Assembly: GCF_004010195.1 (NCBI RefSeq)
Contig: NC_057753.1
Location: 9,820,864 to 9,840,863, forward strand
Reading direction: 5' to 3'
Source: Chiloscyllium plagiosum
Lineage: Eukaryota
Length of the DNA: 20,000 nucleotides
Both the position numbers and the translations under genes were made by a program. The notes under the pieces are model-generated. The model did not search any database, was not told the DNA's origin, and worked only from the letters and a program-made list of their open reading frames with translations. This document shows, piece after piece, positions 1,418 through 18,329 of the stretch (position 1 is its first letter; each line of letters begins with the position of its first letter).

Positions 1418-2290
1418 ATGGCTCAGCCTGATCGTTCTGCCTTTCACTGCACTCTTTCTTATCTTTCTTTCACTAACTATGTTTGATTGGGCCTGATAAC
1501 CTCAAGTAAACGGGAATTACAGTTTAATATTTTTCTTTCTACACAGAAGGTCAACCACTCTAGCTGGGTATGTGCACATATCCCCATCCATCCCAAACTC
1601 GCACCAAGCGAGCCCTTATAGAATTTGACCGACTTGAAGCTTTCTTTCCCCCTGCCTTTGGAACTGCTCAACTGGAAATCAAAGTCACCTCGCAGACAAT
1701 CCTGTGCTAGGCTCAGTTTACTGTTGTGGCCCTCCTCTCCAGCGATCTCTCAGATGCCGAGATTTCCCCCTTCCCGATAATGATTCCCAATCCCTGGAGC
1801 TGTCTGTCCCTGTCCTTACTGAACCCGAGGACTTTCTGTCTGATCTCCAACCACCACCCCTTGACAAACCCCCTTTTGCTGACACCCACAATCTCTTCTT
1901 TTTAATAAAAAGGAAGGGACTGTGGGAGAATTTGACCAAAATTGCCACAAAACTGCATCAAAGTCATTTTGTCACAAAGCAATGTTTGCAGTAAAATGTA
2001 GCCTGCTAACAGAATGCTGTCTGAGCCCTGGCTAAGGAATTCTGTTTGATAGCCTGCAGCTGCAAGGTCAGGCTGTCTCTGCTCCTCGGGCCATTAGACT
2101 GTGCTGCTTCATAGAATGATGGATTGTTTCTCTCTGTCCCTTATCGGTAATTCGAGCCGAGCTAAACCTGCAGTAGAAGATAACATTCAGTTTGGCAGAC
2201 ATTAAGAAATGTGAACCTTACAACTGCCCCTCCGTTGCATAATTAATGGACAGTAGGCTTGTGTTTTACCATAAAACTTGTAACATTCTG
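1418..2290 (+). pseudogene. env: ERV env remnant (copy 2)
   Basis: Hydrophobic WLSLIVLPFTALFLIFLSL directly after integrase, then NHSSWVCAHIPIH (1553-1591); copy 3 reads NHSSC*VCAHIPIH, giving consensus CWVC (CxxC of gamma-type SU); 3' limit approximate. Confidence 0.6.
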
Positions 2291-2631
2291 TATTTCATTG
2301 TTCAACACAAAGTGCAACGTATTCCAAATAGGTCTTCCCCATGGCAACGAATAAAGCTAGTTAATTGCTCAAGGTCTCCTCTCCTGACTACTTTGCTTTA
2401 AATGATTTGGCACACAAGTTACTTTGCCCCAACAGTACTAACAGTTACATCTAAGGGAGACAGAATTCCTCATGTAGGGGACATCAGAATCCTGGGAGAC
2501 CCCTATTTCTGATTTACTTACTAATGAACAAACATTAAGTATTTATTTTATTCTAATTTTATTTCATTTTTCTTCTTTGATTCCCTGCTATGGCTACACT
2601 ATGTGTCTGGATGGTTGAAAGACTGGGAGAT

Positions 2632-3111
2632 TGTGGGTAGGCTTTCGATTGACTGAACGTTTTATTGTTCTGGAAGCTGTAAAGAAGCGTAAAAGCTTCA
2701 GCAGAAATCCAGTAGAGCTGAGAACAGACCGATATCATACTCCTTGGGAACAGGGAGATCAGCAGAGGACAGAGAAATCAGGACCTGAAATCCAAGCTGA
2801 CACCAGACTACCCTGTGATCTGTGCTTTGATTAGCAGTGCCAACCCTCTGCCTTTACCTATTTGACTACCCCCTTGATATTCCGGATCCAATCCTTGTCA
2901 TCCTGAAGCCATGTCTCTGTAAGGAGTCTCAGACCATAATTATTCTCTTCAATGTGTGCAGTCAATTCATTCGCTTTTGTTACAATGCAGCACACATTCA
3001 GACACACCGTTTTTAGTTTCAATTTTTGTGACCTTTAAAATCCAGTTTTGATTGCTGGTACATTTACTCCCCTTGTCCCTTTCTATTGTCCTCTGATGTT
3101 AATTTCCCACA
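2632..3111 (+). mobile_element. ERV 3' LTR (copy 2, 480 bp)
   Basis: Terminal inverted repeats TGTGGG (2632-2637) and CCCACA (3106-3111); preceded by purine-rich GAAAGACTGGGAGAT; lies downstream of pol/env remnants. Confidence 0.75.
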
Positions 3112-3829
3112 CGACTACATTGCTCACCGGCCTTAATTTGGATTGGCCATGCTAAATTGCCCATAGTGTCCAGGGATGTGCAGGTTAGGTGGGTTAGCCA
3201 TGGGAAATGCAGGGTTATAGTTTCATAGTAATAGAAGCAGGAGTAGGCTATTTGACCCGTCCAGTTTGCTCCACCATTCGTTATTATCGTGGCTGATCGA
3301 TCCATTGTCTCAGCTTCTCCTCCCTGCATGTCACAAGTAATCCCTTAATTCCCCGACCATGCAAAAACCCATCCAACTGTGTCTTGACTATACTTAATAA
3401 AGCTACCTCTACTGCTTTCTTCGGCAAAGAATTCCATAGATTCACTACTTAACGGGAAAAGGAGCTCCTCTTCATCTTCATACCGAACGCCGCCTTCACT
3501 AACCTGTCCACCTGAGACTCCACTTTCAAGGAATTATGAACCTGCACTCCAAGGTCTCTTTGTTCTGCAACACTCCCCTTAACTGTGTCAGTTCTGCCTG
3601 GATTGCTTGACCAAAATGCAAAACCTCACATTTCTCTAAATTAAACTCCATCTGCCAGTCCTCAGCCCATCAGGTAAATTCTAATTTATAGCGAACTGTT
3701 TTCCTCTCTTATTCCCTTGAAGCTGAGAATCTCCAACCCACACACTATCCCTCCATTCTCACTTTGCTGAACCTAATCCCTGCTGTACCACATCCTGAAG
3801 GGTCTGGTTCATGCTGATTAACAGACCCA

Positions 3830-4215
3830 CACTCAGGGGGAATCTAACTGAAACATACAGAATACTGAATGACCTGGAGAGAGTAGACATTAGGAAGATG
3901 TTTCCATTGGGAGGAGAGACTAGGACCCGAGGGCCCAGCCTTAAAGTGAAGGGAAAACCTTTGAGAACAGAGATAAGGAGAAACCTGTTCAGGCAGAGTG
4001 TGGTGAATCTATGAAACTCACTGCCACAGAAGGCTGTGTAGGCCAGGTCACTGAGGATATTTAGGACTGAGCTAGATAGGTTTGAGTTTAAAGGGGGAAT
4101 CAAGAGTTACGGAAAGAAAGCAGGAGAATGGAGTTGAGAAACCAAGCAGCCATGATTAAATGGTGGAGCACACCTGATATGCTGAATGGCCTCATTTCTG
4201 CTCCTACGTCTGATG
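3830..4215 (+). mobile_element. CR1/L2-group LINE 3' end (ORF2 C-terminus and tail)
   Basis: LRGNLTETYRILNDLERVD..MFPL..TRTRGPSLK..RRNLFRQSVVNL*NSLP, typical CR1/L2 ORF2 C-terminus, followed by GCTGAATGGCCTCATTTCTGCTCCT tail. Confidence 0.85.
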
Positions 4216-4324
4216 ATCTCTTGCTGTCCTGGACACAGAGTGAGAGGATTGGGAGCAGGAGTAGGCCATTTGGTCTTCCAAGCTTGCACTTGCATTGAAC
4301 ACATATTAATCTACCAATATCTCG

Positions 4325-4676
4325 GTGGATAGGCTGGGACTTTTTTCACTGGAGCACAGGAGGTTGAGAAGTGACCTTATAGAGGTTTATAAAATCATGA
4401 GGGGCATAATGAGGTGACCGCCAGGTATCCTTTCCCTCGGGTGTGGGTTTCAAGATTCGGCAGCAAATTTGATGGTGAGAGGAGAAAGATTTTAAACAGG
4501 CAGGAGGGACACAGAGAGTGGTTTGTGTGTGGCATGAATGTCCAGAGGAAATAGTGGATGTAGGTACAGTAACAACATTTAAAAGACATTTCGATAAGTA
4601 CATGAACAGGCACGGTTGAGAGGAACATGGGCCAAGCACTGGCAGGCAGGACTTGTTAGGTTCGTTAGTATAGTCA
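4325..4676 (+). mobile_element. CR1/L2-group LINE 3' fragment
   Basis: LGLFSLEHRRLRSDLIEVYKIMRG motif and ACATTTAAAAGACATT; runs into the gap. Confidence 0.8.
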
Positions 4677-5176
4677 NNNNNNNNNNNNNNNNNNNNNNNN
4701 NNNNNNNNNNNNNNNNNNNNNNNNNNNNNNNNNNNNNNNNNNNNNNNNNNNNNNNNNNNNNNNNNNNNNNNNNNNNNNNNNNNNNNNNNNNNNNNNNNNN
4801 NNNNNNNNNNNNNNNNNNNNNNNNNNNNNNNNNNNNNNNNNNNNNNNNNNNNNNNNNNNNNNNNNNNNNNNNNNNNNNNNNNNNNNNNNNNNNNNNNNNN
4901 NNNNNNNNNNNNNNNNNNNNNNNNNNNNNNNNNNNNNNNNNNNNNNNNNNNNNNNNNNNNNNNNNNNNNNNNNNNNNNNNNNNNNNNNNNNNNNNNNNNN
5001 NNNNNNNNNNNNNNNNNNNNNNNNNNNNNNNNNNNNNNNNNNNNNNNNNNNNNNNNNNNNNNNNNNNNNNNNNNNNNNNNNNNNNNNNNNNNNNNNNNNN
5101 NNNNNNNNNNNNNNNNNNNNNNNNNNNNNNNNNNNNNNNNNNNNNNNNNNNNNNNNNNNNNNNNNNNNNNNNNNNN
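4677..5176. other. Assembly gap (500 N)
   Basis: Exactly 500 N, probably a fixed-size scaffold gap. Confidence 0.99.
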
Positions 5177-5670
5177 GTCAAATCTTCAGCAGAGCTGAGA
5201 ACAGACTAACATCGAGATGCCTTTTAACTGTTGTAATTACATCAGTCGCCACCACTTCCTCTGGCAGTTCGTTCCACACGTAACATCCTCTGTGTGAAAA
5301 GGTTTCCCCTCCGGTTCCTTTCAAATCATTCCCCTCTCACCTCAAATGTATGCCCTCCAGTTTTGGACTCCCCTATCCTGGGGAAAAGACTTTAAGTACT
5401 CACCCTATCCATGCCCCTCACAAACGTCTATAAGATCACCCTTCAGCCTCCGATGCTCCAGGGTAAATATTCCCAGCCTATTCAGTCTGTTGCTGTAGCT
5501 CAAATCTTCCAAATCTGGCAACAATCTTGTAAATCTTTCAAAGTTTCATATGTTTCCTATAGCAGGGAGACCAGAACTGAACACAGTATTCCAAAAGTGG
5601 CCTAACCACTGCCCTGCACATCCACAACAGAACCTCCCAGCTCCTGTACTCTCTGCTGTGACTAATAAAG

Positions 5671-5894
5671 TTGAAAAATGTGGTGCTGGAAAAACACAGC
5701 AGGCCAGGCAGCATCCGAGGAGCAGGAGAATCGACGTTTCGGGCATAAGCCCTTCTTCACCTCATTCCTGAAGAAGGGCTTATGCCCGAAACGTCGATTC
5801 TCCTGCTCCTTGGATGCTGTCTGGCCTGTGTTTTTCCAGCACCACATTTTTCAACTCTGGTACACCAGCATCTGCAGTCTTCACTTTCTCCTAG
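5671..5894 (+). mobile_element. Short Penelope-like (pseudo-LTR-derived) insertion with inverted 5' duplication and 14-bp TSD
   Basis: Inverted arms 5669-5759 and 5769-5856 with 9-nt spacer; direct repeat TGTGACTAATAAAG at 5657-5670 and 5895-5908; body matches 15508-15638 and 16828-16917. Confidence 0.85.
5764..5799 (+). ncRNA. Minimal type I hammerhead ribozyme motif (PLE-type)
   Basis: CUGAAGA (5768-5774), A, stem II GGGC-uuau-GCCC, GAAA (5788-5791), palindromic stem III ACGU with GUC triplet (predicted cut after 5795), short stem I UC/GA. Confidence 0.8.
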
Positions 5895-6264
5895 TGTGAC
5901 TAATAAAGGCCAGCATACCAAATGCCTTCTTCACTATCCTGCCTACCTGAGACTCCACTTTCAAGGAACTATGTCTCTTTGCTCTGCAACACTCGTCTTA
6001 ACTGTCAGTCCTGGCTGGATTCGCTTCATCTTATCAACACCTCAAGGCCAGGAACCTGGAACATTTGAGTTCCTTTCCATATATGGAGTTATTTTTCTCA
6101 TTCCTTGACTGATATGATAGTTTACTGGTCTTGTACATCTGCTGTTAGGTTGGTTTAACTTTACATTTTTCTCTGCCTGTCTGCAAAGTCAGGCCCTTAC
6201 TTCTTTGTTTCCCTGTGCTTTTATAGATTTCACAATAAATGTTAATTTTCCATTACACCAGCTG

Positions 6265-6670
6265 GGTACCTTTTAAATGCTGTAACTGTACCAGCCGCCA
6301 CCACTTCCTCTGGCAGCTCATTCCTTACATGCACCATGCTCTGAATACAGGAATTGCCCCTTAGGTTCATTTTAAATCCCACCCTCACCCTGCACTTATG
6401 ACCCATTCAGGGAAAAGACCTTGTCTATTTACCCTATCCATGCCCCTCATGATATTATATAAGTTTGTAGGTCACCCTCAGCCTTTGGCACTCGAGAGAA
6501 AACAGCCCCACCCTACTGAGCTCAAACCCTGACAACATCCTTGTCAATCTTTTCAGAATCCTTTCAAGTTTCACAACATCCTTCCTCTAGCAGAGAGACC
6601 GGAACTGCATACAACATTCTAAAAGTGGCCTAACCAATGTCTGGTGCAGCTACAACATAACTTCCCATAA
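6265..6670 (-). mobile_element. CR1/L2-group LINE 3' fragment (antisense)
   Basis: Paralogous to 5214-5640 (CCACCACTTCCTCTGGCAGCTCATTCC, CCCTATCCATGCCCCTCATGAT, AAAAGTGGCCTAACCA). Confidence 0.8.
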
Positions 6671-6974
6671 TTCCTATAAGCAGAGGATTGGGAAAGTTTT
6701 CAAAATCCACAAAAGACAACCGGGAAAGAATGGAGGGACAAACCGAACTTTTTGAGGGTCAGCTTGGAACATCAGGGCAGGGGGATGGGAATGAGGGAAG
6801 GAAGCTGAATGTGCTGGAGCCAAGGTGGAGGAAGAACAGGATGCAAAACCGGTTTGAAGCTGCAATGAGGAATATTGCATGTGCTGTACTTGTACCTGTT
6901 GCAGTTACTGGTGGGAATCGCATTTTGAAAAAATAAAAACAAGGAAGCTATCTACCCCTCTGCCTTCCCAACGT

Positions 6975-7090
6975 CGATCCTTCTGTTCCGCCGTGTGACG
7001 TCAATAAAGAGGGGCGGGGAGAGGATAAGTGACGTCAAAGGGGCTGGGTGAGATAGTCAGCGGGCTTCCGCGCTACGCATGCGCTGCCCT
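6975..7090. promoter_or_regulatory. CpG-rich promoter-like cluster: two CRE, GC box, ETS-like, NRF1-like
   Basis: TGACGTCA at 6996-7003 and 7030-7037, GGGGCGGGG 7011-7019, CTTCCG ~7065-7070, ACGCATGCGC 7075-7084; CpGs retained. Confidence 0.6.
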
Positions 7091-7144
7091 GCAGCAGAAG
7101 GGGTGGAGAACACTGTCCAAAAACCCCTTCCCTTCAGAGAATCC

Positions 7145-8818: not shown

Positions 8819-9604
8819 ATACCCTGGTCCTGCCAGGTCACCGGCCGATATTCTTTGAGAGGGGAAATATAGAAGGTATTTGCTGCTTCTGTTGTGTCCA
8901 AAATAAAAAGGAAAGCTGGCCAGGGTCAAAAATGCTGTTAGAAATGCTGATACAATTCTCGCTACTCAGCCACAAGATACTAGTGTGAATACTCAACAGG
9001 GTCCTAGCATCTGGACATAATGTTGCTGAGAGCACTTGTGCTTTACAAAGTTAGTAATAATGAATTTGCTTGCCCCAGGGTTTTGAGAGGTGAAACCCTA
9101 TTTGATAAACCCTGCACTCACACTGAGGTCCATGGCATGTTTCAAGATGCCCCTGATCTGTTCAAGTGCCCAACATTAGTTTTAATTGCCGAGTAGAAAT
9201 CTGCAGTGAGTATAATTGCTCGCTTCAGGATGTCCAGACTTGAATGAATTCGACATACAGGACACATTGGGCAACTATTAAAGACTCAGTTGTACTTCCC
9301 CTGGGTTGTGGACTCATGCAGAGAAACAAATAACTTGATTGAAAACAGTGTTCGATTTGCAAATAGAATGGCTGAGAGGTATTTAGAGTTTGCACACTTG
9401 GTTAAGCAGCTATGCGTCACAGCCAGGATTTATGAGGCTCAACTCCCTAACTTGGGCTGTTCTGGAATGTGAGTGCCTCATTACCCTTGGAAAGTAGGAA
9501 TAAATAAAAGCTGACAAACAGATATGAAGAAAGTTGGAGAATGTTACAGAGAGAGAGAGGTGCGTAGGGAGGGGGGGGGGTCGTAGGCAGGCAGAGAGAG
9601 GGGA

Positions 9605-11834
9605 GGCAGGCAGAGAGAGAGAGGGAGAGGCGCAGGCAGGCAGAGAGAGAGAGGGAGAGGCGCAGGCAGGCAGAGAGAGAGAGGGAGAGGCGCAGGCAGG
9701 CAGAGAGAGAGAGGGAGAGGCGCAGGCAGGCAGAGAGAGAGAGGGAGAGGCGCAGGCAGGCAGAGAGAGAGAGGGAGAGGCGCAGGCAGGCAGAGAGAGA
9801 GAGGGAGAGGCGCAGGCAGGCAGAGAGAGAGAGGGAGAGGCGCAGGCAGGCAGAGAGAGAGAGGGAGAGGCGCAGGCAGGCAGAGAGAGAGAGGGAGAGG
9901 CGCAGGCAGGCAGAGAGAGAGAGGGAGAGGCGCAGGCAGGCAGAGAGAGAGAGGGAGAGGCGCAGGCAGGCAGAGAGAGAGAGGGAGAGGCGCAGGCAGG
10001 CAGAGAGAGAGAGGGAGAGGCGCAGGCAGGCAGAGAGAGAGAGGGAGAGGCGCAGGCAGGCAGAGAGAGAGAGGGAGAGGCGCAGGCAGGCAGAGAGAGA
10101 GAGGGAGAGGCGCAGGCAGGCAGAGAGAGAGAGGGAGAGGCGCAGGCAGGCAGAGAGAGAGAGGGAGAGGCGCAGGCAGGCAGAGAGAGAGAGGGAGAGG
10201 CGCAGGCAGGCAGAGAGAGAGAGGGAGAGGCGCAGGCAGGCAGAGAGAGAGAGGGAGAGGCGCAGGCAGGCAGAGAGAGAGAGGGAGAGGCGCAGGCAGG
10301 CAGAGAGAGAGAGGGAGAGGCGCAGGCAGGCAGAGAGAGAGAGGGAGAGGCGCAGGCAGGCAGAGAGAGAGAGGGAGAGGCGCAGGCAGGCAGAGAGAGA
10401 GAGGGAGAGGCGCAGGCAGGCAGAGAGAGAGAGGGAGAGGCGCAGGCAGGCAGAGAGAGAGAGGGAGAGGCGCAGGCAGGCAGAGAGAGAGAGGGAGAGG
10501 CGCAGGCAGGCAGAGAGAGAGAGGGAGAGGCGCAGGCAGGCAGAGAGAGAGAGGGAGAGGCGCAGGCAGGCAGAGAGAGAGAGGGAGAGGCGCAGGCAGG
10601 CAGAGAGAGAGAGGGAGAGGCGCAGGCAGGCAGAGAGAGAGAGGGAGAGGCGCAGGCAGGCAGAGAGAGAGAGGGAGAGGCGCAGGCAGGCAGAGAGAGA
10701 GAGGGAGAGGCGCAGGCAGGCAGAGAGAGAGAGGGAGAGGCGCAGGCAGGCAGAGAGAGAGAGGGAGAGGCGCAGGCAGGCAGAGAGAGAGAGGGAGAGG
10801 CGCAGGCAGGCAGAGAGAGAGAGGGAGAGGCGCAGGCAGGCAGAGAGAGAGAGGGAGAGGCGCAGGCAGGCAGAGAGAGAGAGGGAGAGGCGCAGGCAGG
10901 CAGAGAGAGAGAGGGAGAGGCGCAGGCAGGCAGAGAGAGAGAGGGAGAGGCGCAGGCAGGCAGAGAGAGAGAGGGAGAGGCGCAGGCAGGCAGAGAGAGA
11001 GAGGGAGAGGCGCAGGCAGGCAGAGAGAGAGAGGGAGAGGCGCAGGCAGGCAGAGAGAGAGAGGGAGAGGCGCAGGCAGGCAGAGAGAGAGAGGGAGAGG
11101 CGCAGGCAGGCAGAGAGAGAGAGGGAGAGGCGCAGGCAGGCAGAGAGAGAGAGGGAGAGGCGCAGGCAGGCAGAGAGAGAGAGGGAGAGGCGCAGGCAGG
11201 CAGAGAGAGAGAGGGAGAGGCGCAGGCAGGCAGAGAGAGAGAGGGAGAGGCGCAGGCAGGCAGAGAGAGAGAGGGAGAGGCGCAGGCAGGCAGAGAGAGA
11301 GAGGGAGAGGCGCAGGCAGGCAGAGAGAGAGAGGGAGAGGCGCAGGCAGGCAGAGAGAGAGAGGGAGAGGCGCAGGCAGGCAGAGAGAGAGAGGGAGAGG
11401 CGCAGGCAGGCAGAGAGAGAGAGGGAGAGGCGCAGGCAGGCAGAGAGAGAGAGGGAGAGGCGCAGGCAGGCAGAGAGAGAGAGGGAGAGGCGCAGGCAGG
11501 CAGAGAGAGAGAGGGAGAGGCGCAGGCAGGCAGAGAGAGAGAGGGAGAGGCGCAGGCAGGCAGAGAGAGAGAGGGAGAGGCGCAGGCAGGCAGAGAGAGA
11601 GAGGGAGAGGCGCAGGCAGGCAGAGAGAGAGAGGGAGAGGCGCAGGCAGGCAGAGAGAGAGAGGGAGAGGCGCAGGCAGGCAGAGAGAGAGAGGGAGAGG
11701 CGCAGGCAGGCAGAGAGAGAGAGGGAGAGGCGCAGGCAGGCAGAGAGAGAGAGGGAGAGGCGCAGGCAGGCAGAGAGAGAGAGGGAGAGGCGCAGGCAGG
11801 CAGAGAGAGAGAGGGAGAGGCGCAGGCAGGCAGA
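9605..11834. repeat. Perfect 30-bp minisatellite (CGCAGGCAGGCAGAGAGAGAGAGGGAGAGG)n
   Basis: 73 identical units at 9631-11820 plus partial units at each end; unit has 16 G, 10 A, 4 C, 0 T; degenerate GA/GGCA flanks. Confidence 0.99.
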
Positions 11835-11945
11835 AGGAGAGAGAGAGAGAAAGCCATGCAGGCAGAGAGACAGACAGATAGGGAGAGACTGCCTCAGTGC
11901 CAACACCCTGCAGCTTGCAGAAAGGTTAACACTTTGTAATCTGGT

Positions 11946-12249: not shown

Positions 12250-13130
12250 TTGATCGTTCTGCCTTTCACTGCACTCTTTCTTATCTTTCTTTCACTAACT
12301 GTGTTTGATTGGGCCTGATAACCTCTAAACGGGAATTACAGTTTAATACTTTTCTTTCTACACAGTAGGTCAACCACTCTAGCTGCTGAGTATGTGCCCA
12401 TATCCCCATCCATCCCAAACTCGTACCAAGCGAGCCCTTATGGAGTTTAAGCAACTTGCAGCTTTCTTTTCCCCTGCCTTTGGAACTGCTCGACTGGAAA
12501 TCAAAGTCACCCCGCAGACAATCCTGTGCTCGGCTCAGTTCACTGTTGTGGCCCTCCTCTCCAGCGATCTCTCAGATGCCGAGATTTCCCTCTTCCTGAT
12601 AATGATTCCCAATCCCTGGAGCTGTCTGTCTCTGTCCCTGTCCTGACTGAACCCGAGGACTATCTGTCTGATCTCCAACCACCACCCCTTGACAAACCCC
12701 CTTTTGCTGACACCCACAATCTCTTCTTTTTAATAAAAAGGAGGGACTGTGAGAGATTTTGACCAAAATTGCCACAAAACTGTGGCAAAGTCATTTTGTC
12801 ACAAAGCAATGTTTGCAGTAAAATGTAGCCTGTTAACATAATGCTGTCTGAGCCCTGGCTAAGGAATTCTGTTTTGATAGCCTGACCTTGCAGCTGCAGA
12901 CTGTCTCTGCTCCTCAGGCCATTAGACTGTGCTGCTTCATAGAATGATGGATTGGTTCTCTCTGTCCCTTATCAGTAATTCAAGCTGAGCTGAACCTGCA
13001 GTATAAGATAACATTCTGTTTTATAAACATTAAGAAATGTAGGTCTGGACAATGTATGTGAACCTTACAACTGCCCCTCAGTTGCATAATTAATGTGTTT
13101 TACCATAAAACTTGTAACATTCTGTATTTT
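12250..13130 (+). pseudogene. env: ERV env remnant (copy 3)
   Basis: Paralogous to 1429-2295; NHSSC*VCAHIPIH at 12372-12413. Confidence 0.6.
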
Positions 13131-13440
13131 ATTGGAATATGTCAGACTTTGTTTTGAACTAAGAGGTATTTCCATGGTCTCCTCTCCTGACTACTTTGCT
13201 TTAAACAATGTGGCACACGAGTTACTTTGCCCCAACCATACTAATAGTTCCATCGAAGGGAGAGAGAATTCCTCAAGTCGGGCACTATCAGAATCTTGGG
13301 AGAGCCCTATTTCTGGTTTACTTCCTAATGAATAAACATTAAGAACGAGCACCTATTCATTTCTAATTGTGTTCCATTTTTTCTTCTTTGATTCCCTGCT
13401 CTGACTACACTCTGTCCGGTTGATTGACTGGCTGGGAGAT

Positions 13441-13927
13441 TGAGAGTTGGGTTTCAATTGACAATGTTTTATTGTTCTGGAAGGTATAAAAGGGGCTTGA
13501 AAGCTTCAGCAAAAATCCAGCAGAGCCGAGAACAGACTGACATCTTACTCTGTGCAAACAAGGAGATCAACAGAGGACAGAGAAATCAGGCCCTAAAACC
13601 CGAGCTGACACCAGGCTACCCTGTGATCAGTGCTTTGATTAACAGTGCCAACCTTCTACCTTTACCTCGCTTCCCATCTGACTACCCCCTCGATATTCAG
13701 GATCCAATCCTTGTCATCCTGAAGCCATGTCTTTGTAAGGAGTCTCCGATCATAATTGTTCTTTTCGGTGTGTGCAGTCAATTTATTCACTTTTGTTACA
13801 ATGCAGCACACATTCAGAAACATTGTTTTTAGTTTCAATTTTTGTGATCTTTAGAATCCAGTTTTGATTGCTGGAATATTTACTCTCCTTGTCCCTTTCT
13901 CTCGTTCTCTGATATTTATTTTCCACA
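13441..13927 (+). mobile_element. ERV 3' LTR (copy 3)
   Basis: Homologous to 2632-3111; TG start after GGGAGAT, TATAAAA at ~13485, ends TTCCACA. Confidence 0.72.
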
Positions 13928-14619
13928 TCACTACATTGCTCACCGGCCTGGATTTGGATTGGCCATGCTAAATTGCCTATAGTGTCCAGGGATGTGCAGG
14001 TTAGGTGGGTTAGCCATGGGAAATGAAGGGTTATAGTTTCATTGTAATAGAAGCAGGAGTAGGTCATTTGGCCCATCCAGCCTGCTCCGCCATTCATTTA
14101 GATCAGAGCTGATCTATCCATAGACTCAGCTCCTCCTCCCTGCATTGTCCCAACTACCCTTCATTCCTCTATCATTGCAAATACCCATTCAACTGTGATT
14201 TGAATATACTTAACGAAGCTGCTTGTACTGCTTCCTTGGGCAAAGAATTCCATAGATTCACTACTCACCAGGAAAAGGAGCTCCTCTTCATCTTCACACC
14301 GAACGCCACCTTCACTATCCTATCCAACTGAGACTGCATTTTCACGGAACTATGAACCTGCACTCCAAGGTCTCTTTGTTCTACAACACTCCCCTTAACT
14401 GTGTCAGTCCTGCCTGGATTGCTTGACCAAAATATAACACCTCAACCTCTCGAAATTAAACTCCATCTGCCAGTCCTCACCAATTCTAATTTATAGCAAA
14501 TCTCTTTCCTCTCTTATTCCCTCTAAGCTGAAAATCTCACTCCATTCTCAATTTGCTGAACCTAATCCTGCTGTACATCATCCTGAAGGGTCTGGTTCAT
14601 GCTGGTTAACAGGCCTACA

Positions 14620-15255
14620 CATTGAAACATACAGAATCCTGAACGGCCTGGACAGAGTGGTGTTGGAAGGAGTGGCCTTAAAGTGAAGGGAAAACCTTTG
14701 AGAACAGAGATAAGGAGAAACCTGTTCAGCCAGAGAGTAGTGAATCTATGGAACTCACTGCCACAGAAGGCTGTGGAGGCCAGGTCACTAAGGATATTTA
14801 AGACTGAGATAGATAGGTTTGAGAATAAAGGGGGAATCAAGGGTTACGGGGAGACACAGGAAAATGGGGTTGAGAAACCGAGCAGCCATGATTAAATGGC
14901 GGAGCACACCCGATGGGCTGAATGGCCTCATTTCTGCTCCTGTGTCTTATGGTCTCTTGCTGTCCTGGACACAGAATTGGGAGCAGGAGTAGGCCACTTG
15001 GTCTTTTGAGCTTGCACCAGCATTGAACAGATCATAACTGGATATGAATCTACCAACATCTTGGTGCATAGGCAGGGACTTTTTTCACTGGAGCACAGGA
15101 GGTTGAGCGTTGACATTCGAGAGGTTTATAAAACCATGAGGGACATAGATGAGGTGAACGGCGGGTATCCTTTCCAGAGGGTGGGGGGTTTCAAGATTAG
15201 GCTAGTCAGCATGAACTTGTTGGACTGGAGGGTCTGCTTCTGTGCTGTATGACTC
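14620..15255 (+). mobile_element. CR1/L2-group LINE 3' fragments
   Basis: RRNLFSQRVVNLWNSLPQKAVEARSLRIFKTEIDRF and QGLFSLEHRRL..EVYKTMR. Confidence 0.85.
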
Positions 15256-15507: not shown

Positions 15508-15638
15508 CATTCCTGAAGAAGGGCTCGGGCCAGAAACATCAACTCTCCTGCTGCTTGGATGCTGTCTGACCTGCTGTGCTTTTCCAGCGCCACACTTTTC
15601 AACTCCGATCTCCAACATCTGCAGTCCTCACTTTCTCC
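15508..15638 (+). mobile_element. PLE short module with degenerate hammerhead motif
   Basis: CATTCCTGAAGAAGGGCTCGGGCCAGAAACATC...CATCTGCAGTCCTCACTTTCTCC, homologous to 5763-5891; stem II and III weakened. Confidence 0.75.
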
Positions 15639-15734
15639 ACATCCCAATAAATCGCCATTTAAACAATACACCTCCTTTATGCTTTTTTTCCCCCACAGCG
15701 AAGGCTACAACTTCACATTGTGGTACTGCATTTG

Positions 15735-15878
15735 TCATGTGTTTGACAAATGTGGTCTTCTCTTCACCAGGAAGACCGAGCATAAACTTGGGGAATGGTT
15801 CACAGAGCATCGCAGCCAGGTCCACAGAGGCCGTCCGGACTTCCCAGTCACCACCCATTTTAATTCCCCTTCCCATTG
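15735..15878 (+). pseudogene. PLE GIY-YIG endonuclease fragment
   Basis: CGLLFTRKTEHKLGEWFTEH...PDFPVTTHFNSPSH resembles PLE C-G-x-x-Y-I-G-E-T...L..RF.EH...PVA.HFN. Confidence 0.75.
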
Positions 15879-16002
15879 TGTTCTTCCAGCCTCCTGTCTG
15901 TTTTCCAGTGTCTCTCCTCCCTGGATTCAATCCCGTTCCTTTCAGTTGCTGCAAGTCAACAATTGAACCCGAGAATGAAAAAAATGAAAAAGGGAGTGCT
16001 GT

Positions 16003-16305
16003 ACTCACAGATGTTGGACAGAGGAACGAAGTTGCAGTCTGGACTGAAGCTCAGGGAGACAGAAACAGCAGCAGCACCAGCTTCAGAAGCTCATGGTCTA
16101 CCTTCCGCTTTCAGACAATGGGGGGAGGGAGCTGGGCTTTGATTGGCAGGAGGACCACGCTCCTTCTTGTATTCCAGGGCCCACTATTGGTCCGTCAAAA
16201 AAAGGTCGCCCGCCTTTTCAGCAAACAACAATGAGCATGCGCAATGTTTTGCTGACACTAGCAAACCTGCGTACTACTTGCTAACACCGATGTGCATGCG
16301 TCGTG
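16003..16305 (-). promoter_or_regulatory. Putative promoter plus short first exon, minus strand
   Basis: CCAAT boxes (ATTGG 16142, 16186), NRF1-like GAGCATGCGC (~16233) and GTGCATGCGT (~16292), CGGAAG near 16103-16108, splice donor GTGAGT at 16008-16003. Confidence 0.5.
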
Positions 16306-16429
16306 TGCCCTGTGGACAGATTGTAAGTGTTCAAATGCCAACAAGAGAAATAAAGAGTAGAGCCACAACTTTTTTTTATTCTATGTGGCTCGACATTTTT
16401 ATCCCTTTTGCGTTTTGTATGTCTCTTCC

Positions 16430-16624: not shown

Positions 16625-16965
16625 AAACCCATTCTAAAAGATGAAAGATTTAATCTAAACTTCTTTAATGCATCACATCTCCGTGACACTCAACTCCTTT
16701 GGCTATACGTTCTGTGCTCACGATCTCATTCTCCACAACAACCTGACAAAGGAGTGGTGCTCTAAAAGCTTGTGCTTCCAAATACACCTGTTGGACTATA
16801 ACCTGGTGCTGTGTAACTTTTAATTTTCTGAAAGAAGGGCTTATGCCCGAAACGTCGATTCTCCTGTTCCCTGGATGCTGCCTGACCTGCGCTTTTCCAG
16901 CAACACATTTCCAGCTCTAACTTTTAATTTTGTCCACCCCATTCCAACACCGACATGTCCACATC
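16625..16965 (+). mobile_element. PLE 3' region, second family (decayed hammerhead-like motif), hosting a nested insertion
   Basis: CCTGACAAAGGAGTGGTGCTCTAAAAGCTTGTGCTTCC...GGACTATAACCTGGTG; split by 16828-16917. Confidence 0.6.
16828..16917 (+). mobile_element. 90-bp PLE hammerhead module with 14-bp TSD
   Basis: CTGAAAGAAGGGCTTATGCCCGAAACGTCGATTCTCCTG...; direct repeat TAACTTTTAATTTT at 16814-16827 and 16918-16931. Confidence 0.85.
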
Positions 16966-17792: not shown

Positions 17793-18329
17793 TCAATCCA
17801 TGTGAACTCGCTCTTGCCTCCGCAGGTGGGAGGAGAGGGTGATGGCCTTCCCTCACTCAGGGCAGCTGAAGGGCTTCTCTCTGGTGTGGACCCGCTGGTG
17901 CCTCCGCAAGTTGCCCACCTGACTGAATCCCTTCCCGCACTCGGGGCAGCTGAAGGGCCTCTCTCCCGTGTGGAGCCGCTGGTAGGTCAGCAGTTTGGAG
18001 GCCTGGGTAAAGCCCTTCCCACACTCGGGGCAACTGAATGGCCTCTCCCCCATGTGGAGCCGCCGGTGGGTCTGGGGGTTGGAGGTATTGTTGAAGCCCT
18101 TCCCGCACTCGGGGCAGCTGAATGGCCTCTCCCCGGTGTGGATCCGCCGGTGAGTGAATAGGGTCAAGGCCTGGGCAAAGCCCTTCCCGCACTCAGGGCA
18201 GGAGAATGGCGTCTCCCCGGTGTGACTGCGTCAATGAATCTCCAGGGCAGATAGGACACAGAAGCCTTTTCTGCAGTCGCCACACTTCCATGGTTTCTCC
18301 ACGGGGCAGAATTCCTCAGGTTTCTCCAG
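17793..18329 (-). pseudogene. C2H2 zinc-finger pseudogene, six tandem fingers
   Basis: EKPWKCGDCRKGF..., four CPECGKGF...H fingers with HTGERPF-type linkers and a sixth broken finger; in-frame TGA at 18233-18231 and 17855-17853; His lost in fingers 4 and 6; presumed start reads CTG. Confidence 0.9.

Follow-up and report, generated by a model that had tools for sequence, protein, structure and literature searches.

In a stretch of 20,000 nucleotides from the shark Chiloscyllium plagiosum (contig NC_057753.1, positions 9,820,864 to 9,840,863; below, the window, with positions counted from its first letter), a decayed LINE is interrupted by an insert that consists of two 5'-truncated copies of one repeat end. 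The copies stand head to head, one with a tail and one without. The insert is likely an insertion of a Penelope-like element (PLE) reduced to the terminal repeat alone, and we consider it very probable that it is a dead-end stub from one event, with the palindrome built at insertion.

The insert and its target site

The insert (5671-5894, 224 bp) lies between exact 14-bp direct repeats, 5657-5670 and 5895-5908. Its inverted arms, 5669-5759 on the left and 5769-5856 on the right, are 91 and 88 nt long and differ by two substitutions and one 3-nt gap; the first two bases of the left arm (5669-5670) are already part of the target-site duplication (TSD). When coordinates and counts were re-derived, the sizes of insert, arms and direct repeat were those given in a preliminary description of this DNA. 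The features of the locus are:

5210 to 5980, minus strand: host, the 3' part of a decayed LINE, split by the insert; continuous frame, high depth and run-through contigs
5657 to 5670, no strand: left TSD, 14 bp, of which the final 2 agree with the tail-less end of the family as well (2-nt microhomology)
5671 to 5759, minus strand: terminal-repeat copy in inverted orientation and without a tail; its 5' truncation at U4 leaves the hammerhead core without C3
5760 to 5767, plus strand: beginning of the direct copy, comprising most of the "spacer"; it gives the 5' strand of helix I in the pairing table
5768 to 5797, plus strand: predicted minimal type I hammerhead motif, from a descriptor match and the pairing table, with traits as in PMC4209133
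5769 to 5856, plus strand: right arm, the terminal repeat in direct orientation, lacking 3 nt near 5825
5857 to 5894, plus strand: one-sided extension of 38 nt, matching the PLE "tail" and common to a second copy at 15508-15638
5895 to 5908, no strand: right TSD, 14 bp, identical to the left one

The insert had been described as a palindrome with a 9-nt spacer. The inverted arms are present, but the palindrome is not pure: the right arm alone is extended by 38 nt (5857-5894) ahead of the TSD. This extension is family sequence, present in copy 2 and absent from both the left arm and copy 3 (see below). Nine nucleotides do separate the arms (5760-5768), but at least the last six of them (5763-5768) are the family's own sequence 5' of the core, as the match of copy 2 begins at 5763. 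Folded as RNA, the hairpin has a z-score of -24.55, with an equally good fold in none of 200 shuffles, and contains a duplex of 88 bp at -183.8 kcal/mol.

Judged from the reading frame, the direct repeat is a true TSD in which codons of the LINE have been duplicated. Both flanks translate in one minus-strand frame, with the residues FISH on either side of the insert: ...KKAFGMLAFISH on the right is continued in the same frame by FISHSREYRSW... on the left. In a public DNA-like sequencing run (X2), 245 contigs leave the aligned stretch before 5897, and, compared by eye with the left flank at 5629-5658, their consensus agrees at 22 of the 30 positions. It is the single frame across both flanks, the duplicated FISH and these run-through LINE contigs that identify the repeat as a TSD, and the proposed insertion into a LINE is borne out by them. 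Among 3000 random box pairs at similar spacing, none shared an exact repeat of more than 10 bp.

The host is presumably the ORF2 end of a CR1-like LINE, an assignment made by motif and without a library match. Its peptide matched no Pfam family, and in the Atlas only unnamed clusters. None of the LINE paralogues inside the window spans the insertion site, so the window offers no empty site. An assembly gap of 500 N (4677-5176) lies about 480 bp left of the insert.

Elsewhere in the window there are local segmental duplications at 96%, 85% and 84% identity (1-861 / 2929-3790 / 13745-14575 and 1429-4461 / 12251-15202), and a 30-bp purine-rich tandem repeat with 75.9 copies and 99% matches (9596-11874). 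A C2H2 zinc-finger array on the minus strand (17846-18230) is probably an exon of a zinc-finger gene.

The hammerhead motif

A minimal-hammerhead descriptor matches the window once, at 5768 on the plus strand, and nowhere on the minus strand. The same descriptor gave no match in 500 Markov-simulated sequences of 17.2 kb. In the matched core C3 is at 5768, the extra A at 5775, a 4-bp helix II at 5776-5787, the palindromic ACGU at 5791-5794 and C17 at 5795, after which the cut is predicted. In the minus arm a G replaces C3. The complete plus-arm core with a predicted cut after 5795, and the lack of C3 in the minus arm, are thus as first reported. A search of Rfam, on the other hand, returned no hammerhead but only hairpin-shaped miRNA models, with scores of at most 48 against gathering scores of 82-104.

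The core is complete, while its modelled fold is marginal given that helix I has only two contiguous pairs, followed by one more past a U-U mismatch. In the model a dimer reaches -14.7 kcal/mol with helix I and -18.9 without it, and the best dimer fold is at -24.1 kcal/mol.

The plus arm, and only that arm, has the traits of the minimal hammerheads of metazoan PLEs as given in PMC4209133: a full conserved core, an extra base between 9 and 10.1, the pair G10.1-C11.1 and a palindromic 15.2-16.2. This agrees with the claim of a dimer-type ribozyme, as a prediction. In the same text these motifs also lack a helix III loop, are mostly solo copies and occur as opposite-strand pairs, as here; such dual motifs lie about 100-700 bp apart in PLEs. 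Helix I has 2 bp here, as in D. virilis, compared with 4-5 bp in Schistosoma, and helix II has 4 bp compared with 7-8 in Schistosoma. The two supplementary files of PMC4209133 that were searched hold no shark entry. According to that source, single minimal hammerheads do not cleave and dimers cleave at a low level. The ribozyme of an anole PLE cut only with protein and was dispensable for insertion (PMC11167929). The hammerhead is the usual motif of the terminal repeat in this family.

If the insert were read through, the ribozyme is predicted to be masked, as had been proposed, since the core bases pair within the full hairpin, where the helix II closing pair has a computed probability of about 5e-15. 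In any read-through RNA the hammerhead would therefore be buried and inactive. CpG-rich, promoter-like stretches are seen at 6970-7100 and around 16190-16320, with what we take to be CRE-, GC-box- and NRF1-like motifs. The former, some 1.1 kb away from the insert, might make read-through possible. As with the inverted Penelope copies of Drosophila, from which siRNAs have already been described (PMC3681739), the inverted repeat would then give dsRNA, the putative Dicer/ADAR substrate of the earlier description.

A plus-strand frame (5782-5894) begins with an ATG within the loop of helix II and runs through the tail. Counted from this ATG, the tail ends at +113, compared with reverse transcription starts at +111-118 in the anole element (PMC11167929), and the cut site is at +14, compared with +26 there; this may be coincidence.

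Family copies and a possible link to a PLE endonuclease

Two further copies and one coding remnant are found in the window:

15508 to 15638, plus strand: copy 2, an older solo copy with tail and decayed hammerhead, 84% identical, without a clear TSD
15709 to 15876, plus strand: what is left of a PLE-type GIY-YIG endonuclease, on the strand of copy 2 and 70 bp downstream of it
16814 to 16931, plus strand: copy 3, a solo tail-less copy (16828-16917) with its own exact 14-bp TSDs (16814-16827 and 16918-16931)

Copy 3 starts exactly at C3 and carries one extra A in the core. It ends at the same family position as the left arm, and its TSD has the same length (14 bp) as that of the main insert. Both other copies in the window are thus solo arms.

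Four public runs were aligned to 5760-6300 at 85% likeness, among them two DNA-like runs (X4 and X2) and one of RNA (X21). The summed contig depth over the core is 10.0 million in X4 and 16.6 million in X2, as against about 190-220 at 5988-6006; the family is very large, although summed depth does not equal copy number. Contigs that leave the match before 5764 into unrelated flanks number 255 (X4) and 408 (X2), with an agreement of 0.31-0.32, and this cluster of loose ends lies 4 bases from the edge of the aligned stretch. A second cluster, at 5773, probably reflects clipping next to 5772, where an A/T variant is common. Most of the family appears to consist of solo arms.

Opposite-strand joints were found at 5764/5775, 5773/5865 and 5779/5863, and all three have centres unlike that of this insert; they are among the 15 joints listed out of 29, and with an aligned stretch that starts at 5760, contigs sharing this centre would have escaped notice, so that a palindromic subfamily may exist. 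Head-to-tail joints occur in single contigs of X4 and X2, which return from 5795-5798 to 5764 and so contain short repeats ending at the predicted cut or just past it. In one contig each of X4 and X2 the tail end (5897) is joined to 5764.

In the RNA run 2024 of 12,955,460 records matched, on both strands, only 32 of them at 99% identity or above, and 92% of the matched reads continue into unlike sequence. This shows the family inside many transcripts, as expected of repeats in host transcripts, and says nothing about this locus. No RNA data set was listed as containing the locus itself, a result without bearing on its expression. In one fragmented poly(A) library no accumulation of read ends was listed, although a cut would not be visible in such a library anyway. 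A common upstream continuation in 188 reads (agreement 0.65) suggests that the family reaches further 5' in some copies. Places with A>G and T>C, the changes that RNA editing would leave, number 13 and 26 in X21, compared with 9/18 and 7/16 in the two DNA-like runs; they are not clearly raised, because C>T and G>A are higher too.

The endonuclease remnant shares one open frame with the tail of copy 2 (15517-15966) and may belong to the insertion of that copy. Pfam does not recognise the remnant in the window. With the frame 15517-15963 as query, phmmer returned 19 protein matches, one of them unrelated; 8 of the 19 have a Pfam GIY-YIG match at E 0.01, two of these above the curated cut-off, and 10 of the 13 that were looked up come from sharks and rays. 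A zinc-finger-like Cys motif in the linker before the endonuclease is seen in P0003, P0007, P0011, P0015 and P0017 and is not preserved in the window. By sequence, this Cys-rich linker of the remnant's relatives may point to the Neptune clade of PLEs.

Six-frame translations of the arms were compared with all 19 proteins in a shuffle test (n=300). Only P0006 of the whale shark stood out: over its residues 11-32 it agrees with the translated inverted arm at 15 of 23 positions, with a score of 71 where the highest shuffled score was 39, and its endonuclease-like part (residues 37-89) follows directly. Its layout would correspond to an inverted repeat beside a truncated ORF, as in PLE insertions; P0006 is one gene prediction, in which the junction of arm and endonuclease could be a predicted splice, and it has no Pfam family at E 0.01. 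In P0015 the frame after the GIY-YIG domain gives a short peptide like a translated minimal hammerhead core, which is not significant (17 of 300 shuffles).

A full-length parent with RT, endonuclease and terminal repeat was not seen as DNA in the prokaryotic and viral collections scanned. The core pattern, exact or degenerate, had no match in viral contigs or in genome contigs, and one among metagenome contigs: L001, where a solo minimal hammerhead lies in a fish-like intron. There, at 3790-3825 on the minus strand, core and helix II are nearly the same and helix I has 3 bp; no PLE ORF is among the listed ORFs of this contig. Alignment of the endonuclease to viral and genome contigs gave no confirmed match, and word-indexed protein searches found nothing. 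Full-text searches combining shark terms with Penelope returned no paper seen to describe the terminal-repeat family, which may thus be undescribed in the open literature searched.

According to PMC3846280 and PMC8557442, the insertion unit of EN+ PLEs consists of a pLTR, an adjacent inverted and 5'-truncated pLTR head to head with it, a tail of 30-40 bp on one side (a tail length also given in PMC11167929) and a TSD. Compared with what these texts describe, the insert has the same head-to-head copies, one-sided tail (38 nt), TSD around the whole and retroelement as target. It differs in that there is no ORF between the repeats and each copy breaks off where the hammerhead begins, and its TSD has 14 bp where the rotifer examples there have 8-10 bp. 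Four of the five features of the unit are thus found here: an inverted truncated copy, a 30-40-bp tail at one end, a TSD and a hammerhead in the terminal repeat. For the fifth, that the repeat ends an element with RT and GIY-YIG, there is an endonuclease link through 1 of the 19 proteins and the remnant 70 bp from copy 2, and no RT was seen. The PLE origin suggested earlier is supported by this architecture, by the family tail and by the endonuclease link (P0006 and the remnant).

Non-LTR retrozymes, as characterised in bioRxiv 10.64898/2026.07.22.740005, are similarly short and non-coding, carry a type I hammerhead and derive from PLE terminal repeats; they are reported there in the one chondrichthyan sampled. 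However, they are head-to-tail tandem units, each with a complete hammerhead, while the insert is head to head with one complete core, and we did not assign it to this group.

Could the hairpin instead be a MITE-type DNA transposon, or a miRNA-type hairpin gene, with a hammerhead-like string by chance? Its length and stability and the weak Rfam miRNA matches would fit, but those scores stay far from the gathering values (at most 48 against 82-104), the right arm is not terminal because of the 38-nt tail, and a GIY-YIG endonuclease appears to be linked to the repeat. A solo arm with its own TSD (copy 3) largely refutes the idea, which we regard as extremely improbable. Terminal inverted repeats that move only as a pair, as in MITEs, are not what is found here, given the one-sided tail and the solo, TSD-flanked arm.

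Origin and age of the palindrome

The preferred reading is that the palindrome was made at insertion and not inherited from a palindromic parent. The PLE GIY-YIG endonuclease would nick both strands of the LINE remnant, 14 bases apart, and each 3' end would prime reverse transcription on uncleaved element RNA. One cDNA would start from the tail end (5894) and the other from the tail-less start site (5856). On reaching the front of the hammerhead motif, after 90-135 bases, both would stop; their head-to-head joining would give a product that presumably moves no further.

In vitro, the purified protein of an anole PLE cleaves both strands and extends them, uses uncleaved RNA and has two internal start sites, the interval between them being the tail (PMC11167929). 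As in that element, the green anole Poseidon element PAc, both arms keep the sequence upstream of the predicted cut site, which fits uncleaved RNA, and their ends are the two family ends (with tail in copy 2, without in copy 3), whose distance of 38 nt fits the two start sites. Unlike PAc, the present family would belong elsewhere, as the Cys-rich linker of the remnant's relatives may point to Neptune, and the mechanism known in vitro for PAc is for this insert a proposal from its anatomy.

Alternatively, the palindrome itself might be a non-autonomous element whose 224-nt hairpin transcript is inserted anew, as one piece, by PLE enzymes. The clean TSD enclosing the entire insert and the retained tail, where the priming site lies in the anole element (PMC11167929), are consistent with such an element, and sequence other than their own can be mobilised in trans by PLE terminal repeats (PMC3846280). 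Yet both other copies in the window are solo arms, the three inversion joints among the 15 listed of 29 have other centres, and reverse transcriptase would need to cross the 88-bp duplex (-183.8 kcal/mol). We therefore hold this alternative to be improbable. Since the family consists largely of solo arms and has other inversion joints with other centres, the palindrome appears as a by-product of each insertion, and the earlier view of a palindrome that spreads as a unit is not sustained.

A second alternative is that a solo copy came first and that the inverted arm is a fold-back product, made when the new cDNA, or a repair event later on, took its own strand as template. Minority variants at 5824 and 5831 are common to both arms, as from a single template, and self-priming has been proposed for inverted PLE junctions (PMC3846280). 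Against it, the inverted arm ends at the tail-less end of the family, like copy 3, directly at the TSD, a position more in keeping with a priming site than with a chance stop, and the centre is without an overlap palindrome. Fold-back is accordingly a minority reading to us, though one locus cannot separate it from two-ended priming.

Within the preferred reading, priming from two ends, the head-to-head stub might be a frozen record of a dimeric enzyme that primed both nicks on two separate RNA molecules, a suggestion that we make only tentatively. Both substitutions between the arms are states also found in the family, and the arm differences may therefore be differences between templates and not later mutations.

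The insert had also been called young. Its arms differ at two sites plus the indel, and at 4 or more of 135 positions it carries a base other than that of the family majority: in both X4 and X2 at 5820, 5824, 5864 and 5880 (majority above 85% of depth), besides indels. These differences do not favour the label. Dating by arm divergence was tried and set aside: 2 substitutions in 88 at 7e-10 per generation (from PMC10587355, for a species that may differ from the host) give about 1.6e7 generations by hand, a value that is unreliable given one CpG site and possibly two templates.

As a single locus the insert matters little, being one of very many PLE end fragments. It is, however, a clean minimal example, with a verifiable TSD, of the unexplained PLE geometry of inverted repeat and tail. 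Shark genomes hold abundant hammerhead-bearing palindromes of this kind, which can be mistaken for MITEs or miRNA hairpins. If priming on two templates is true, arm-by-arm genotyping in shark genomes would be a genome-scale test of it, including the stop at the front of the hammerhead.
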